From positions 30,001-62,000 of the forward strand of contig SUPR01000005.1 in NCBI GenBank assembly GCA_005191425.1: 32,000 nucleotides of DNA. Direction: 5' to 3'. Each line of letters starts with the position of its first letter. Position 1 is the first letter of the stretch. Both the position numbers and the translations under genes were made by a program. The notes below the pieces were generated by a model, which was not told the DNA's origin, did no database searches, and saw only the letters and a list, made by a program, of their open reading frames with translations. The stretch is from Candidatus Helarchaeota ASGARD archaeon Hel_GB_B. Its GTDB lineage: Archaea; Asgardarchaeota; Lokiarchaeia; Helarchaeales; HEL-GB-B. This document shows positions 1,408 through 30,933 of this stretch, piece by piece.

Positions 1408-1596
1408 TCTCTTTATATTTTAACAATCCATATCATATCTATACTTTTTATTATATTAAATTATAAATCATGAAAATAATGATTTAATGATAAATTGGTG
1501 TTTTTTTATTTTAATATTACTCATTAAAAATCTTATCAATACAAAAATATTTAAAAAAAATCGAAAAAATCAATTTTTGGTTAAAAAAATAGAAGA

Positions 1597-2172
1597 TTAA
1601 TAGGGTTCTTCTGGAATTAACGACCAAACGAATAGAACTGAGAGAACAACGCAAAGATAAATCCCTGGTATTCCCATTAAATCAACTAGAAAGAAATATG
1701 TACAAACTGCAAATATAGCGCTTAGTAATCCTATTGCAATATAGCCCCATATATTATTTTTTAATATTCTTGGATTTAAATGTTCAAATAGTTGCGCACC
1801 TATTCCAACACAGAATGCAATTAATAAAATGGGCGTTGAAGGTAAATATGCACTTGTCATGAAATAAATATAAAATAGATATGCAATAAATGCTGATATT
1901 GCTGCAAAAAATAGTCCCATACATGTAGCTCTATATAATCTATTTCTTGTTTTTACAAATATTGGCCAAATAAATGCTAAAATCCAAATTGTAATTAGAG
2001 TTGATGTATAGAGTCCTGTATTTATAAAACCCAGTCTATTCAATTCAATAAAAGCAACTACTACTACTCCAATTACTATACCTACTAATATTAATTGGAA
2101 TTGCCATCTAAACCGATATCCTTTTTCTATATCCTTTAAAAGAGCTTCTCCTTCTTCATCAATATCTGCCAA
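1597..2172 (-). CDS. Hypothetical polytopic membrane protein (~6 TM helices)
   Basis: 191 aa with about six hydrophobic stretches. TTG start preceded by GAGGTGA. Confidence 0.75.
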   Translation of the reverse strand: MADIDEEGEALLKDIEKGYRFRWQFQLILVGIVIGVVVVAFIELNRLGFINTGLYTSTLITIWILAFIWPIFVKTRNRLYRATCMGLFFAAISAFIAYLFYIYFMTSAYLPSTPILLIAFCVGIGAQLFEHLNPRILKNNIWGYIAIGLLSAIFAVCTYFFLVDLMGIPGIYLCVVLSVLFVWSLIPEEPY

Positions 2173-13372: not shown

Positions 13373-13846
13373 CTATTCTGTATATTCATCAAATAACCAA
13401 TAATGTTCCTCTTCTTCCATATAAATATCTTCAAATAACTTTTTAGTAGTAATATCTCCTCTTTTTTCAGCATATTTAATTATTGTTCTATAATATTCCA
13501 TAGCCCCTCGTTCTGCTTCTAAATTATTTTTAAGAAAATCATCATAATTATCTCCGATTTTTGGAGGTGCTGATTTTGTTGTAGGTCGTCCACCAAGTAC
13601 AGCTATTCTCTCCGCAATTTTCTCAGCGTGGTCCATTTCTTGAATTGCTATTTCTTTTAACTTTGCGGATAATACTTCATATTTATTTTTACCCGTAATA
13701 ATTTGAAGTGGGCTTGCTTTTTTCCTCATTTTTAGCATTTCTGACTTTGAATGTTGCGCCATGTATTGAATAATTGCTTGAATCTCCATATTAAGGGCAT
13801 TATTTAAATTCTCAAAATATTCATCATCTACTTTAATTGGTTTCAT
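13373..13846 (-). CDS. Ferritin-like di-iron protein (bacterioferritin/rubrerythrin-like four-helix bundle)
   Basis: Ferroxidase pattern E(IQAIIQY)...EMDH...E(RGAMEYY)...EEEH. Confidence 0.88.
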   Translation of the reverse strand: MKPIKVDDEYFENLNNALNMEIQAIIQYMAQHSKSEMLKMRKKASPLQIITGKNKYEVLSAKLKEIAIQEMDHAEKIAERIAVLGGRPTTKSAPPKIGDNYDDFLKNNLEAERGAMEYYRTIIKYAEKRGDITTKKLFEDIYMEEEEHYWLFDEYTE

Positions 13847-22368: not shown

Positions 22369-23631
22369 TTATATTGATCTGGGGTCTGTTATTTCTCCTT
22401 TTATTGAACTTGCTGCAACTGTTGCTGAATTTGCTAAATATATCTTAGCCTTTTTGCTACCTTGTCTTCCAATGAAATTTCTATTTGAGGAAGATAACGA
22501 AACTTCTCCTGGAGCTAGAACTCCGTATGCTCCGATACAAGGGCCACAACTGGGATAGTTCAAAAAAGCCCCTGCTTCAATTAAAATTTTAATTATTCCT
22601 TGGTCTAAGGCTTTTAAATAAATTTCTTGGGATGCTGGGACTATAATTAGTCTAGTATCTGGGTGGATTCTTTTATTTTTAAGTATTTTAGCAGCAATTT
22701 CCAAATCTTCAAAACGTCCATTTGTACAGCTGCCGATAAATGCTTGATCGATTTTTATTCCTTCTACTTCATTTACTGACACTGAATTTTCGGGACTATG
22801 TGGTTTTGCAACTTGTGGGTCGAGGTCTGATAAATCATAATCAAATTTCTTTTCATATATGGCATTTTCATCACTTTTTATGATTTTAAAGGGTTTCTTG
22901 ACGCGGTTTTTTAGCCAATTCAATGTTTTATTATCAGGTTCCATTATTCCCGCTTTAGCACCCATTTCAATTGCCATATTACTAATAGTCATCCTACTAT
23001 CTATACTTAAGTTGGAGATTACACTTCCTTTAAATTCTACAGATTTATAATTAGCCCCTTCAACTCCTATTTCACTTATCAATTTTAATATAACATCTTT
23101 TCCATAGACCATTGGTTTTAACTTACCAGTTAGGTTAAAAAGAATTGTTTCAGGGACTTTAAACCATAATTCCCCAGTAGCAAGTAAAATTGCAGCATCT
23201 GTAGAGCCAACTCCTGTAGAAAACGCACCAAAAGCGCCATAAGTGCATGTATGACTGTCTGTCCCTACAATAAGTGCCCCTGGCCACGCAAAACCCTTCT
23301 CCGGAATAACTTGGTGACAAATTCCCTGGTTCCATCCTAACCAATTTTTAATGCCGTGTTTTTTTACAAACTCTCGCTCATTCTTATCAATTATTGCAGT
23401 ATCTATATTTGCAGGAGGTATCCAATGGTCCAAAAGTGCAACTATTTTGTCTGAATTTTTTATTTCGTTGACCTCTATTTCATTAAAAATATCTATTACT
23501 CTCATACCTAACATTTCATGCATCATAATTATATCTACATTTGCATTGATAATTTCGCCAGGTTCAACTTTTTCTTTATTAGAATGGGAAGCTAAAATTT
23601 TCTCGGATATAGTTGACATTTTTTCACCCAT
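22369..23631 (-). CDS. leuC: 3-isopropylmalate dehydratase/homoaconitase family large subunit (likely start ATG 23619)
   Basis: DHW, GICHQ, GTDSHTCTYGA, FIGSCTNGR, SCGPCIG and SNRNFIGRQG. All three Fe-S cysteines are present. Substrate specificity cannot be resolved from sequence. Confidence 0.9.
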   Translation of the reverse strand: MGEKMSTISEKILASHSNKEKVEPGEIINANVDIIMMHEMLGMRVIDIFNEIEVNEIKNSDKIVALLDHWIPPANIDTAIIDKNEREFVKKHGIKNWLGWNQGICHQVIPEKGFAWPGALIVGTDSHTCTYGAFGAFSTGVGSTDAAILLATGELWFKVPETILFNLTGKLKPMVYGKDVILKLISEIGVEGANYKSVEFKGSVISNLSIDSRMTISNMAIEMGAKAGIMEPDNKTLNWLKNRVKKPFKIIKSDENAIYEKKFDYDLSDLDPQVAKPHSPENSVSVNEVEGIKIDQAFIGSCTNGRFEDLEIAAKILKNKRIHPDTRLIIVPASQEIYLKALDQGIIKILIEAGAFLNYPSCGPCIGAYGVLAPGEVSLSSSNRNFIGRQGSKKAKIYLANSATVAASSIKGEITDPRSI

Positions 23632-24733: not shown

Positions 24734-24973
24734 TTGTTAGTGTCTAAAAAATCTAAAGAAGAAGTTAAGGTAATAACAAAAACTGCGCTTAGAAGGTTAA
24801 TGAAAAATGAAGCATTGGCTGATATAGTTTCAGCAGATGCTGTTCTTAGACTATTAGACCATCTACAGGATCTAGCCATTGATACAACCAAAAAAGCTAT
24901 AAAAATTGCTGAAAATGCAAAGAGAAAAACTGTTACTAAAGATGATATTAAATTAGCTATTAGAACTCCATAA
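24734..24973 (+). CDS. Archaeal histone with a short basic N-terminal extension (likely start GTG 24740)
   Basis: Histone fold ALRRLMK...IVSADAV...KRKTVTKDDIKLA with the RKT-x3-D L2 motif. GAGGG lies upstream of GTG 24740. Confidence 0.92.
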   Translation: MLVSKKSKEEVKVITKTALRRLMKNEALADIVSADAVLRLLDHLQDLAIDTTKKAIKIAENAKRKTVTKDDIKLAIRTP

Positions 24974-25085: not shown

Positions 25086-25748
25086 TTGAACCAATTAAAT
25101 AGCTTGATTAAAATGCTTGATGAAAATTCATTGGTAAAAAAAATCAAAACTTTATTAAAAAACAGTAAAATCAAAAAAATTGTCAACTCTAAAATACAAG
25201 AGTTTAAAGAACTTGGAAAATCATCAAATGAAGCCATTTTTAATGAATTATGTTTTTGTATATTGACAGCAAATTATAACGCTGAAAAAGCAATAAAAAT
25301 ACAACAGGAAATTGGAAATGGATTTTTTAGTGATAAAGATATTATCACCAAATTGAGATCGTTAGGATATAGATATCCTAATTTAAGAGGAAAATATATT
25401 ATTGAAGCTAGAAAAATTATAGACAAATTAAATGATATAATAAATTCTTTAAAGGGCCAAGAATTAAGAAATTGGTTTGTACAAAATATTAAGGGACTTG
25501 GTTATAAGGAGGCGAGCCATTTCCTACGAAATATAGGTTTTACTGATTTTGCTATCATAGATTTTCATATTATTGATATACTTGTTAAAAATAAGTTAAT
25601 AGAGAAACCGACTTCAAAAAGTCTAAGCAAAAGAAAATACTTGGAAATTGAGAGTGTTTTAAAAAATTTAGCTGATCAATTAGGTATTACTTTAGCAGAA
25701 TTAGACCTTTATCTTTGGTATTTAGAAACCAATAAAATTTTAAAATAA
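25086..25748 (+). CDS. ogg: 8-oxoguanine DNA glycosylase/AP lyase (thermostable OGG2 type); start may be ATG 25113
   Basis: ELCFCILTAN, GYRYPNLR, the HhH motif NIKGLGYKEASHFLRNIG, AIIDFHI, and LDLYLWY. Confidence 0.93.
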   Translation: MNQLNSLIKMLDENSLVKKIKTLLKNSKIKKIVNSKIQEFKELGKSSNEAIFNELCFCILTANYNAEKAIKIQQEIGNGFFSDKDIITKLRSLGYRYPNLRGKYIIEARKIIDKLNDIINSLKGQELRNWFVQNIKGLGYKEASHFLRNIGFTDFAIIDFHIIDILVKNKLIEKPTSKSLSKRKYLEIESVLKNLADQLGITLAELDLYLWYLETNKILK

Positions 25749-25844
25749 TTGAAAGAAAATTTATTTTTTTTATTCGGATATCGATTGCGATTGCAATTCG
25801 ATATTAATCTATTATTTCATTTTTATATAATTGATTTTTCCGAA

Positions 25845-26210
25845 TTATATAGAGCAAATATCTTTTCCTGACAATTTAATGATCGGTGCTTCTACCATTA
25901 CCAATTTTTTATAGACATACCAATCACTGACTCCAATTAAAATTTCGTCGTCATTAATCAATTTTTCTGCTGATTTATTTATATAAATCGAACATCCATT
26001 AAATTTTGATATTTCTCGAAACTCTTTATCTTTTGTTATTTTTTATTGTTCAGCAATTGATATTCCTATTGTTAGGTAGGTTATACTTCAAATCTTTATA
26101 AAATCGCCATAAATTCCAATTGCGTATGGGCATTTTATATTTTCTTCTTGAAACTCCTTAATTTTTTGTGAAACATAATTTTCAGCATTTGTAGTGAATT
26201 TTATATTCAT
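25845..26210 (-). pseudogene. HesB/IscA-like selenoprotein homolog: TGA at the Sec position (codon 41) plus an in-frame TAA (codon 56)
   Basis: Manual translation MNIKFTTNAENYVSQKIKEFQEENIKCPYAIGIYGDFIKI(TGA)SITYLTIGISIAEQ(TAA)KITKDKEFREISKFNGCSIYINKSAEKLINDDEILIGVSDWYVYKKLVMVEAPIIKLSGKDICSI. The pattern follows methanogen HesB-like selenoproteins as I recall them. Absent from the ORF track. Confidence 0.65.
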
Positions 26211-26303
26211 AAGATATTTTTTTAAAATCAGTTTGAAAGTTTTTAAGAAATAATTTCAAAATAGATATAAAACAGTAAAAAATACAAAAAAGGAGATTAT
26301 TAA

Positions 26304-26867
26304 TTGGAAATTGATAAGAAAATTGTTAAAGGAATAACATTACCTTTTAGAATGTTTAATAAGAATTCTCTAAAATTAGATGAATATGTATATGCATTAA
26401 GTTTAAAAGTTTTTGACAAATGTAATATAGACACTGCAAGAAAAATTACTAATTATTCAATACAGAAGAATTGGTTGAAAAAAGAAAACAATTCAATTAT
26501 TTTAAATGTCCCAATAAATCCAATAAATGAACTAATATTTAATTTACCGATAAATTTGGATTTTTTTAAGGATATAGAAATGATAGAATTAATCCCATTA
26601 CCCCAGATTGAACCTTTTAAACCTGTTTACAAAAAAATAAAAAATGGTGCATTTCAAAAGGATACGACAAAAAAAGAGAAACAGAAAAAAGATATTAAAA
26701 AAGAAGAGAAAATAAAGAAAGTAGTAGATGTGAAAAAGAAAACTCCTAAAAGTACTAAGAAAAAATCCGAGCCAGAACAAAAATCCAAGAAATCTCCTAA
26801 AAAAACGACAAAAAAACAATTAAAGCAAAAGGATAAACCAAAAACATTAGATTCCTTTTTCAAATAA
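26304..26867 (+). CDS. DUF2240-like archaeal protein with a Lys-rich tail ending in a PIP-box-like motif
   Basis: N-terminal ~100 aa (LPFRMFNKNSLKLDEYVYALSLK...KKNWLKK) resemble DUF2240. A low-complexity K/E tail ends KPKTLDSFFK. Confidence 0.6.
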   Translation: MEIDKKIVKGITLPFRMFNKNSLKLDEYVYALSLKVFDKCNIDTARKITNYSIQKNWLKKENNSIILNVPINPINELIFNLPINLDFFKDIEMIELIPLPQIEPFKPVYKKIKNGAFQKDTTKKEKQKKDIKKEEKIKKVVDVKKKTPKSTKKKSEPEQKSKKSPKKTTKKQLKQKDKPKTLDSFFK

Positions 26868-27939: not shown

Positions 27940-30033
27940 TTATTGTATTTCTTTTATTCTTTTTTTACGATAATCATCTAGTATATTTGATAATTCTTTT
28001 TCTTTTTCTTGTAATAATAAATTTTCCCGTTTTTTTATCCATTTTTTATAGACTAAATCAAATTTTTTTCTATTTATAAGAATATAATCATTAATTCTAT
28101 ATATATCAAATTCAGAAGAGGGAATTGCAATAACGTTATGTTTAATAAAAGCCTGTTCTGCTCCATGTGTCATATTACTTATTTTTGAATTATAAATTAT
28201 ACACTTTACGCCCCGTTCTATTAATGTAAGAGCAGTATTAGAGCCTCCGCCACTTATATTATCTATATAAATTATCTCATTTATGATTTTAGTATTTAAA
28301 ATTGTATCTGTAGAAAAGTTTGGGATAATTTGAATATTATAAAATTTATCCATTAGATTCAATTCTTCTAAAAATGTAGAATGCTTGTCTCTATATGTAA
28401 TTTCATTTTGTAATTCTTTAATTTTATATTCTTGTTTATGAATCTGCTTTTTCAAACTAGAAATTTCGTTAAGGAGCGAATTAATATATCGTTCTTTACG
28501 AAATTCTTTATATTGTTCACTTTTCAGAATATCTATAGTGTGTTTGAGTTGGTCTATTTCCACATTTTTTTCTTTTAATGATTTAATTTCAGATTTATAT
28601 CTATGTATTTTATTTAATAAAATTGTATTCTGGTTATAAAGCCGTTTAATTCTATTTTCTAAAACATAATATTGTTTATTATATTTTTCAATTTTAGTAA
28701 TAACTGATTCAGAGGAATCATTCTGTTTAGATGATTCATTATTCAGGGAAGGTGAAGCCAGAGAAATAGCATCAAAAATTGAATAACCTTTTATAATATA
28801 TTTTTTTACTTCATCAGCATTAACTTTATTTTGAAGGTTCATTTCGTGTATTCTCAAGTCCACCTTTTTAAACCGTTTCTCAAAAAATTGGTATGCTTTT
28901 ATGGCGGATACTAACGCGTCTCTTTCATGGGCATTTTCTATTTTTATGTTAGAATTATGTGATTTAAGGAATGTATTTACCAATTCATGTTTCTCAGGGA
29001 TTTTTAATACTTTTTTAGGATGATATATAAGAGCTTGAGACAAATTTGCAAATTTTTCAACAAAACGTGGTATTTTTATAATATCTGTACCAACAACGGA
29101 TGGAATTCCATAATTATTAAATATTAACTTTCTTAAGTCATTTCTACTCATTTGTTTTTTACTAAAAATATCAAGAATATTTCCTTTTAGGTCTAATATT
29201 GCCACACCAATCGTTATGCCTGGATCCAGACCTATTATTAAACTTTTTGACTTCGTAAGTGGAGCACTAGCCCCAGATAATGGTATAAATTCTACTTGGT
29301 TCTTTTTAATAGGGCTTATTTTTATTTTTATTTTTGGAGTAAAAACCGGTCTAATTAATGTATAAATGGACTGATAGTCCGAATATACAAGAAAATGACT
29401 ATAATCTAGTCCATATTCATTTTTTCTAAAAGATAAATCATAATCTATTTTATTTTTTTCTAATAAACTTTGAATCTCTCTAGAAATATTTAAAATTCTA
29501 CCAGTTAGATCTCTTTTATATCTATTTGCACTTTGTCCTCCTCTTCCTGGAATTTTTGCTGTTGAGACAGTAATCTTAGTTTCATCTTTATAGAGATTAA
29601 TTAGATAACCTATTTTTTTCCTTACTAATTCTATACATACTTTAGCAGATTCTAGTGGATTTGTATAGTCCGTTTTTATATTATTTTGTTGTGCAATAAT
29701 CTTCAAAGGCTTTAAAGTATTTGGAATAGCAGGATTACCGGTTACTTGGACTATTTTTATTCCAATAGGTAAATCCTTTATAATATGATATAATTCGCTA
29801 TTATTTTTTACTAATTCAAAAATGTTATCGATAGCTAAATAATTTACATTATATTTATTTAAATACTCAAATAATTTCTTTTTTCTAACATTTTTTTTCT
29901 CAAAAATTGATAAATCTTCTTGAAATATTGCAAGGGAATAAGTGGGTGGTGATTTACTTAGCGGTGAATTCATTGGCTCTATATCAATTCCCGCATAAAT
30001 ATTCAATTTTTTTGATGATGATATATTAACCAC
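27940..30033 (-). CDS. DUF460 (COG2433)-like RNase H-fold protein with coiled coil
   Basis: N-terminal YAGIDI, LAIDNIFEL and LVQVTG-like VQVTG; GRGGQSANRY; central IIGLDPGITIGVAILDLKG; HERDAL; and a C-terminal coiled coil. GTG start. Confidence 0.85.
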   Translation of the reverse strand: MVNISSSKKLNIYAGIDIEPMNSPLSKSPPTYSLAIFQEDLSIFEKKNVRKKKLFEYLNKYNVNYLAIDNIFELVKNNSELYHIIKDLPIGIKIVQVTGNPAIPNTLKPLKIIAQQNNIKTDYTNPLESAKVCIELVRKKIGYLINLYKDETKITVSTAKIPGRGGQSANRYKRDLTGRILNISREIQSLLEKNKIDYDLSFRKNEYGLDYSHFLVYSDYQSIYTLIRPVFTPKIKIKISPIKKNQVEFIPLSGASAPLTKSKSLIIGLDPGITIGVAILDLKGNILDIFSKKQMSRNDLRKLIFNNYGIPSVVGTDIIKIPRFVEKFANLSQALIYHPKKVLKIPEKHELVNTFLKSHNSNIKIENAHERDALVSAIKAYQFFEKRFKKVDLRIHEMNLQNKVNADEVKKYIIKGYSIFDAISLASPSLNNESSKQNDSSESVITKIEKYNKQYYVLENRIKRLYNQNTILLNKIHRYKSEIKSLKEKNVEIDQLKHTIDILKSEQYKEFRKERYINSLLNEISSLKKQIHKQEYKIKELQNEITYRDKHSTFLEELNLMDKFYNIQIIPNFSTDTILNTKIINEIIYIDNISGGGSNTALTLIERGVKCIIYNSKISNMTHGAEQAFIKHNVIAIPSSEFDIYRINDYILINRKKFDLVYKKWIKKRENLLLQEKEKELSNILDDYRKKRIKEIQ

Positions 30034-30054
30034 CCAAATAGATGTAATATATTC

Positions 30055-30933
30055 TTATATTTCAAATTTATCAAAAATTTCTTTTTTATCAATAATAATA
30101 TTAAATTTTCTTCTAAAAAAATTTAGAATATTAAATATGTCTCTTTTTAAATAAAATAAATACTGTGGATGATCGGCAGAAATCCACTGTGGAAAATCGA
30201 AAATTAATAGTTTTTGTTCGTTTAATATCATTATATTAAATTCACTTAAATCCGAATGAATAATATTAAAATTTTTAAATGCTAAATAAATAAAGTCTAG
30301 AATTTTATTTAAAACTTTATTCGGTGTTTTTAAATAATTAATATTTGCTAATAATTTTCCGTTCATAAAACTCATTACAATAATATGTCTATTGTGAAAA
30401 ATTGGTCTTGGGACTGGAAGGCCTCCTTTATGCAAAATTTTCAATGCCTCAAACTCTTTACTTGCAGATAAACGAGATATATATAACCAACTTATATGTC
30501 TTCTGTCTTCAATATAATTTCTATAACGTCTGACATTATGAAAACTTGTTTTTCCAATTCTGTGTATTTTTACAGCTGCGCGTTCTTTACTATTTGACAA
30601 TAAAACATCATAAACATCTGCTTCTTTTCCAACACCCAATTTATTTCCAAATGCTTCTATTATATCTGCTTTTATAAGTGCATTTAAAGCCAGACAATCG
30701 TATCCGTCCATTTTTAATTTATAACCGATAAATTTGTTTTTTTGCATTTCGATAAGTTTATAATTCAACAGTCTATTGAGATAAAAATTAACGTCTTCTT
30801 TTGTATAACCAGAATAAGTAAAAATTGCAGATAAAGGCACATATTGATATTTTTTCATGCCACGTTCAATTGAATTTAAAATATGATAATCTCCGTTTCT
30901 CAATTGTTTTATAGTCTCCAGAACCTTAATCAA
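30055..30933 (-). CDS. rio2: Rio2 atypical Ser/Thr protein kinase
   Basis: N-terminal wHTH, GYDCLAL, GVGKEADVY, KIHRIGKTSF, IHSDLSEFNI and IFDFPQ. Confidence 0.93.
   Translation of the reverse strand: MIKVLETIKQLRNGDYHILNSIERGMKKYQYVPLSAIFTYSGYTKEDVNFYLNRLLNYKLIEMQKNKFIGYKLKMDGYDCLALNALIKADIIEAFGNKLGVGKEADVYDVLLSNSKERAAVKIHRIGKTSFHNVRRYRNYIEDRRHISWLYISRLSASKEFEALKILHKGGLPVPRPIFHNRHIIVMSFMNGKLLANINYLKTPNKVLNKILDFIYLAFKNFNIIHSDLSEFNIMILNEQKLLIFDFPQWISADHPQYLFYLKRDIFNILNFFRRKFNIIIDKKEIFDKFEI

Follow-up and report, generated by a model that had tools for sequence, protein, structure and literature searches.

Five selenoprotein families were reported from Lokiarchaea in Mariotti 2016 (PMC4989117), and seven, identified through their homology to families already known, were listed for more than 400 Asgard genomes in Huang 2024 (PMC11227280). 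In the latter survey, 85% of the selenoprotein genes carry structures resembling eukaryotic selenocysteine insertion sequences (eSECIS-like; SECIS hereafter), with cores of the types AUGA_GA, AUGA_AA, and GUGA_GA (PMC11227280). A 2026 review counts eleven archaeal selenoprotein families, including the HesB-like proteins described by TIGR01911, which are marked by a UxGP motif at the selenocysteine (Sec, U) site (Table 1 of PMC13188914) and are not among the families that the review names for Asgard archaea (PMC13188914). An Asgard selenoprotein of the IscA/HesB fold, or a SECIS that lacks the core, appears in none of these three papers (PMC4989117, PMC11227280, and PMC13188914), a mention elsewhere being possible. 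Here, we analyze a locus in a 32,000-nucleotide (nt) stretch of DNA (the window; contig SUPR01000005.1, positions 30,001 to 62,000) from Candidatus Helarchaeota archaeon Hel_GB_B, for which an original prediction, made from the letters of the window, had proposed a methanogen HesB-like selenoprotein gene with UGA at the Sec site and a second in-frame stop. We put at roughly two in three the probability that this locus (25845..26210, minus strand; the window gene) is a copy of an Asgard family of IscA/HesB-fold selenoproteins that is served by a SECIS without the core and was recently inactivated by a TAA codon. The confirmed nonsense allele is new, as is the connection between two genes with such a core-less element. 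Throughout, G000 denotes the genome that holds the window and G001 a genome of the same genus.

Reading frame, protein family, and predicted fold

Translation of the minus strand from 26210 to 25845 yields 121 codons plus a terminal TAA, starting MNIKFTTNAENYVSQKIKEF, and reproduces exactly the predicted frame, with UGA at codon 41 and TAA at codon 56; 65 further open codons follow the latter before the terminal stop. The open reading frame (ORF) track had been described as empty here, and under translation table 11 it lists only pieces of 40 and 38 residues. At the window G+C content of 26.6%, a random codon on this strand is a stop in ≈8.9% of cases, and the chance expectation for 79 open codons past the TGA is ≈6e-4. 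A six-frame search with the read-through translation as query retrieved from G001 a homologue of 119 codons (E 8e-28; 40% identity over residues 1–120), in which a single TGA, in the matching column, is the only internal stop. Weaker matches in other relatives likewise held exactly one TGA. Both genomes share the gene order Ogg glycosylase, window gene, Lys-rich ORF, and a 328-residue ORF, and the window gene and its G001 counterpart are therefore orthologues.

Judged from its sequence, the window frame is a member of a real, Asgard-wide family of predicted selenocysteine proteins, ≈100 to 130 residues in size. Profile A1, built from an alignment of seven sequences in which the TGA column is invariant, finds matches in 67 of the 400 phylum genomes, at ≈88 places in total, nearly all with exactly one in-frame TGA and a handful with none; the family is present in about one-sixth of the genomes sampled, often in multiple copies. 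When 28 members are aligned, the TGA/Sec column is the only invariant one, and the consensus around it reads R-[SG]-U-[SC]-G, with U-S-I-T in the window gene and U-G in G001. A HMMER search of 1.84 billion representative proteins returned 83 relatives, of which 54 are full-length, and the Sec column of these holds Trp in 29 and Cys in 23. The database Trp goes back to a TGA translated under code 4/25: the contig record of one such protein bears the flag “with_TGA=W,” and others are near-identical to loci where the TGA was seen. Homologues thus have TGA or Cys at codon 41, as the original prediction would have it, and the apparent Trp is no departure from this. A further protein database search found three matches among 5.8 billion proteins; the family is almost invisible in such databases because gene callers cut the gene at the UGA. 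One database homologue carries a precomputed PF28096 assignment.

The phylogenetic spread of the family follows that of the Sec machinery. SepSecS is present in 243 of the 400 genomes and in 62 of the 67 that carry the family. The five family genomes lacking it comprise one with a Cys form only, three metagenome-assembled genomes (MAGs) of 66 to 81% completeness, and one MAG of 92% completeness whose genus mates do have SepSecS; no TGA form occurs in lineages without SepSecS. G000 also encodes an intact Cys paralogue of 133 residues (contig C174; positions 1465–1866, minus strand, of locus L002), which has AGCS where Sec would stand and GPC near the C terminus and could cover for the broken Sec copy. 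In three other genomes, extra canonical SECIS matches lie just upstream of family genes (L051:1271–1337, L047:1273–1339, and L062:2341–2408). Inspection of two of these, L047 and L051, showed the matches to be part of tandem paralogues (…SSS-U-TTFYCGN… ending VYG), every copy having a SECIS of its own, and the family therefore expands by tandem duplication.

An AlphaFold2 model was made of the G001 orthologue with the family alignment, not of the window protein, and has a predicted local distance difference test (pLDDT) score of 91 and a predicted template modeling (pTM) score of 0.82, with Sec 41 in the turn of a long β-hairpin. The top nine Foldseek matches of this model in the PDB are all A-type iron–sulfur (Fe–S) carriers (IscA 1r94, 1x0g, and 1s98; SufA 2d2a; 2apn; 1nwb), at probability 1.0 and template modeling scores of 0.5 to 0.65. 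Alignment of the family with the canonical carriers by hhalign (E 1.9e-5 over 82 columns) sets RsCsG on GGCaG and thereby Sec on the Cys of GGCxG. Both the IscA/HesB fold and the UGA at its Sec/Cys position, as proposed at the outset, are borne out, and the model places the protein, as a divergent member, within the IscA/HesB fold superfamily, with predicted Sec at the first ligand Cys.

The idea of a divergent subfamily likewise stands. The window gene matches curated families only below their cut-offs. Fe-S_biosyn (PF01521) gives 16.6 bits against a gathering score of 26.3, NF041239 gives 17.8 bits against a cut-off of 40 and over residues 61–104 only, and TIGR01911 (cut-off 66.35 bits) has no match at E ≤ 10. 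Across the 28 members, PF01521 is touched by 11, one of which reaches 26.4 bits while the rest are sub-threshold; NF041239 is matched over nearly the full length by 16, the best at 37.5 to 37.9 bits; and TIGR01911 is touched by a single member (E 0.054). In no genome among the 400 from the phylum does a match pass the cut-off of NF041239 or that of TIGR01911, and the weak TIGR01911 matches in the phylum are TGA-free proteins of other lineages. The assignment to the methanogen HesB-like family therefore fails, UxGP being absent as well, and the nearest curated family is NF041239. PDB sequence searches returned nothing relevant, whether the query was the window protein, the family profile, or either of two members.

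Asgard canonical carriers end in CGCG. The window gene and its G001 orthologue keep a single C-terminal Cys (KDICSI and KNTCYF, respectively), which is absent in many family members, and several others end in G-S-C. Canonical PF01521 carriers were found in only 5 of 151 phylum genomes sampled and in none of the class of G000; set beside the 67 of 400 genomes with the Sec/Cys IscA-like family, the two distributions are largely complementary.

SECIS elements and the Sec machinery

G000 is 93.7% complete in 182 contigs and encodes SepSecS (482 bits, over the curated cut-off), an adjoining SelB (276 bits, over the cut-off), and SelD with an in-frame TGA (142 bits, over the cut-off). The search for this machinery, suggested with the original prediction, was in these respects successful; a PSTK-like protein scores 156 bits, below the equivalog cut-off of 290, and tRNA-Sec was not found in G000 by Rfam RF01852 or ARAGORN. 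The best RF01852 match, at 33 bits, is a tRNA-Cys, and the others are intron-bearing tRNA-Arg and tRNA-Ser. ARAGORN finds only 16 tRNAs in the 3.5 Mb of G000, and standard finders thus miss most of its tRNAs; at C139:574–791 of this genome lie two adjacent tRNA-Arg genes with introns, one of them outside the anticodon loop. A SepSecS match in another genome (G026, C197:20705–22003, minus strand; 485 bits) holds an in-frame TGA, perhaps through an error in sequencing, perhaps as a Sec/stop codon of this Sec-synthesis enzyme itself. G000 further contains four VhuD/FlpD homologues with one or two TGA codons, three of which are followed by a textbook element (AUGA, helix, AAA loop, helix, GA) and a small side hairpin. 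The fourth (C118:60903–61271, minus strand) has a single TGA and no pattern-matching SECIS in the 300 nt past its apparent stop; another TGA closes its frame.

Most family genes carry a canonical element in the 3′ untranslated region (UTR). A strict AUGA-type pattern ([AG]UGA, at least seven consecutive pairs, a loop with AA, and then GA) matches 20 of 30 family 3′ UTRs within ≈45 nt of the stop, against a background of 0.2% of shuffled UTRs and 1.7% of random windows. About six more fit by eye, with one mismatch, an ACGA core, or the gene’s own TGA stop forming the core. Helix 2 shows compensatory changes at all eight pairs and a covariation score of 0.70, versus 0.25 in shuffles and at most 0.30 with slid partners; the percentage paired is circular because the elements were chosen by a pattern that demands pairing, but the compensatory changes are not. 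A covariance model built from the 20 canonical elements (R1) recovers held-out elements behind five more family genes (26–67 bits) and the element behind one of the G000 VhuD genes (22.5 bits). An R1 match at window 13619–13688 (E 0.37) lies inside a coding frame and was taken as chance, and an Rfam scan of seven family loci returned no SECIS or other relevant family.

Behind the window gene R1 has no match, and behind the G001 gene it reaches only 13.4 bits (E 1.8). What follows the window gene is a three-armed element in which a 10-position helix with one A–A mismatch, starting 8 nt past the stop codon, carries the apical loop AUAAAAAUGAA. The element folds at −18 kcal/mol (z −3.8; the G001 element, z −6.4), and the positions that form the quartet of the canonical core are Watson–Crick paired, as AAUC/GAUU in G000 and AGAC/GUCU in G001. 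A second, tiny UGA gene (…SGSY-U-GKGMC) on G000 contig C27 is also followed by a core-less element, which shares 81% column identity with the window and G001 elements; among these three are five compensatory pairs, including the three former quartet positions. With a model built from the three (R2), one more copy came to light in G001 (65 bits), following …GGSY-U-GKGSC. Core-less elements thus number four copies behind two unrelated UGA genes in two genomes of one genus, and R2 gave nothing convincing among the first 150 candidates per genome in 11 other relatives. A search of G000 for the exact closing-stem pattern TTCGGA…TCCGAA marked no other element.

The residues past the UGA are conserved in both gene types, which argues that the core-less element works or once worked. 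Of the four copies, that of the window is the weakest: two of its pairs are broken, 4 nt are inserted, and its R2 score is 78 bits even though it is part of the training set, against 65 to 95 bits for its three sister elements. This fits relaxed selection, of which it is no proof. It is possible, if somewhat short of an even chance in our estimation, that Sec insertion in this genus relies on a three-armed SECIS from which the AUGA/GA kink-turn core is gone. An Asgard archaeon would then do without the core, the element being recognized by its A-rich apical loop together with the UGCRA loop of the side hairpin. Core-less Sec insertion, if true, bears directly on how SECIS elements evolved from those of archaea to those of eukaryotes.

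The stop at codon 56 and the status of the gene

We aligned Logan contigs of four runs, assembled at depths of 2.5 to 8×, to window positions 25400–26700. Two runs (X1 and X2) are metagenomes from hydrothermal vents from which this assembly may itself have come, X3 is a vent metagenome from another study, and X4 is marine sediment from a third. All four cover the codons at 26043–26045 and 26088–26090 without a single difference, so that the TAA, whose reading had been flagged for checking, is present in each. The sole difference in the region is in X4, at 26169, a synonymous change of TCA to TCG in Ser14; X4 is therefore not the same data as the window assembly. The recurrence of the same TAA in independent assemblies means that it is a real allele, found in four runs, at least three studies, and two habitats. 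Of the readings offered for this codon in the original prediction, a consensus error is accordingly rejected and a recently inactivated allele is favored.

A sense codon was expected at this position in homologues, and the G001 orthologue has Glu there; a second internal stop is found in none of the 29 other family members inspected. The TAA is one substitution away from GAA, AAA, or CAA. The 65 codons past it are open (chance 0.002), and identity to G001 is 44% after the TAA versus 36% before it; given this open and conserved remainder, the inactivation would be recent. Termination at codon 55 leaves a strand–helix–hairpin and removes six of the nine strands of the G001 model. A second initiation past the TAA was rejected, as the first ATG is codon 105 and the first TTG is codon 84. 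We infer that the window gene is most likely a recently inactivated pseudogene: the gene, of the HesB/IscA selenoprotein type, is probably dead in G000.

Four observations weigh against the overall reading of a core-less selenoprotein gene lately inactivated. UGA decoding at the window gene rests on conservation, the element lacking the quartet described for most Asgard SECIS (PMC11227280; PMC4989117). The tRNA-Sec is missing from the search results, as described above. A minority sense allele at codon 56 may be hidden by contig assembly at the depths available. Lastly, the rest of the frame is intact and its only polymorphism is synonymous, which also fits a gene under selection.

One alternative is that the gene functions despite the TAA, either through a 55-residue N-terminal product, a strand–helix–hairpin with Sec at its tip, or through read-through or bypass of the TAA that is frequent enough to yield full-length protein. 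The spread of the allele over four runs and two habitats speaks for it, being hardly that of a rare defect, as do the open and conserved codons past the TAA, the synonymous nature of the sole polymorphism, and a 3′ UTR that is still well folded. We nevertheless judge it unlikely. No other family member inspected has a second internal stop, the short product would lack six of the nine modeled strands, and the broken pairs and the insertion in the window element fit early decay. Recoding of TAA, moreover, is not known in archaea.

Rather less probable still is that UGA is a plain stop in this genus, loss of the core having killed Sec insertion and left the G000 and G001 copies dead, with a 40-residue peptide at most. 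The R1 results behind both genes, the Watson–Crick pairing of their quartet positions, and the use of a canonical core by the G000 VhuD genes would agree with this. However, the G001 frame is open for 79 codons past the UGA and keeps the family motifs at 40% identity, and it must therefore have been translated long after the core was lost. The core-less element is also more conserved than the protein, with compensatory changes exactly at the former quartet positions, and the same element stands in both genomes behind the second, unrelated UGA gene, whose residues past the UGA are conserved as well. That the TAA is an artefact or a minority allele, with GAA, AAA, or CAA at codon 56 of the real population gene, is very improbable: low-depth assembled contigs do hide rare variants and two of the four runs are possibly the source of this very assembly, but X3 and X4, a hydrothermal vent and a marine sediment from other studies, assemble the TAA independently, and X4 differs from the window at another site and is thus separate data.

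Under the preferred reading, that of an inactivated copy with a core-less SECIS, the family would consist of small selenoproteins of the IscA/HesB (A-type Fe–S carrier) fold, widespread in Sec-using Asgard archaea, in which a single UGA is decoded as Sec at the tip of a β-hairpin, where A-type carriers place the first cluster-ligand Cys. The selenol, perhaps with the C-terminal Cys or across a dimer, might bind or hand on a metal or Fe–S species, or it might serve thiol/selenol redox chemistry instead. Sec insertion would be directed in most members by the eukaryote-like SECIS of the 3′ UTR, and in this genus by an element in which closing stem, helix 2, A-rich apical loop, and GCAA side hairpin are retained and the quartet has turned into Watson–Crick pairs. 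In G000, the TAA at codon 56 would cut the protein short halfway through the fold, with the C174 Cys paralogue intact.

Genomic setting and comparison with known systems

The features of the locus and the related core-less elements are collected in the table. The two flanking genes that are shared with G001 serve as synteny markers only, and we propose no functional link to them; family searches of the neighboring genes give no functional hint for the window gene. Farther out, a 79-residue archaeal histone-fold protein (PF00808/PF00125) is encoded at window 24734–24973 (plus strand), ≈900 bp from the window gene. Genes for the large and small subunits of an aconitase-family enzyme (PF00330 and PF00694; 22369–24237, minus strand) overlap via an ATGA-type junction at 23631/23632. 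On the other side, 27940–30933 (minus strand) encodes a 697-residue DUF460 protein with a long, coiled-coil-like middle rich in Lys and Glu, and then a RIO2-type kinase (PF01163 and PF09202).

Table. Features of the window gene, its 3′ element, its neighbors, and sister core-less elements (window coordinates unless a contig is named)
Feature	Position	Strand	Basis
IscA/HesB-fold selenoprotein gene (predicted) with extra premature stop	25845..26210	−	Translation, G001 orthologue, family profile, alignments
ATG start codon	26208..26210	−	N-terminal MNIK common to window gene and G001 orthologue
TGA codon 41, predicted to encode selenocysteine, at the first ligand-Cys site of the IscA fold	26088..26090	−	Family alignment, hhalign
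TAA codon 56, genuine premature stop, context GAA CAA TAA AAA ATA	26043..26045	−	Contigs of four runs
Terminal TAA stop	25845..25847	−	Translation
Three-armed SECIS-like element without AUGA/GA core	25773..25844	−	Fold, sister elements, covariance model
Closing stem of the element	25844–25839 with 25778–25773	−	
Hairpin 1 of the element; A-rich apical loop 25826–25816	25836–25827 with 25815–25806	−	
Hairpin 2 of the element; loop with GCAA 25797–25785	25804–25798 with 25784–25778	−	
Convergent 8-oxoguanine DNA glycosylase (Ogg-HhH)	25086..25748	+	Pfam PF22175, E 2.6e-59; same neighbor in G001
Divergent Lys-rich ORF of 187 residues, no family match	26304..26867	+	Shared with G001
Core-less element locus, tiny gene …SGSY-U-GKGMC	G000 C27:1382–1457	+	Sister of the window element
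Core-less element locus, tiny gene …GGSY-U-GKGSC	G001 C240:2996–3070	−	R2, 65 bits

The family would enlarge the Asgard selenoproteome. With canonical A-type carriers nearly absent from these lineages, the role of a Sec-bearing IscA-like protein comes into question. The window gene itself is a natural nonsense allele, recovered from four runs and no fewer than three studies, and the core-less SECIS variant could show, as an experiment of nature, which parts of a SECIS the Asgard machinery requires.

Compared with the Asgard lokiSECIS (type I, eSECIS-like), the window element likewise lies directly past the stop codon and has a helix 2 of 9 to 10 bp with an A-rich apical loop that begins with unpaired adenines. 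It also resembles the elements of the G000 VhuD genes and of most family members in its closing stem and in its side hairpin with a GCAA/GCGA loop. Unlike the lokiSECIS, it lacks a core of the AUGA_GA, AUGA_AA, or GUGA_GA type, the corresponding positions being Watson–Crick paired and covarying.

At the protein level, the best-scoring curated family for the Asgard proteins is NF041239 (Moor_selen_rel, CC/Se motif family (seleno)protein), whose members are similarly small and whose U-C/C-C motif recurs in one branch of the Asgard family (RG-U-CG); the window gene differs in having U-S instead of U-C and a C-terminal extension with one Cys. TIGR01911 (HesB_rel_seleno) from Methanococcales and anaerobic bacteria, an archaeal selenoprotein family already on record, is likewise a small IscA/HesB-fold protein with Sec for the first conserved Cys. 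It is set apart by its UxGP motif, in place of which the Asgard family has U-[SCG]-G and the window gene U-S-I-T, without Pro. The A-type carriers IscA, SufA, and ErpA (PF01521; PDB 1r94, 1x0g, 2d2a, and 1s98) have the same fold, with the Cys of GGCxG at the position of the predicted Sec; in the window family, Sec would replace this Cys, and the C-terminal C-G-C ligand pair is absent.

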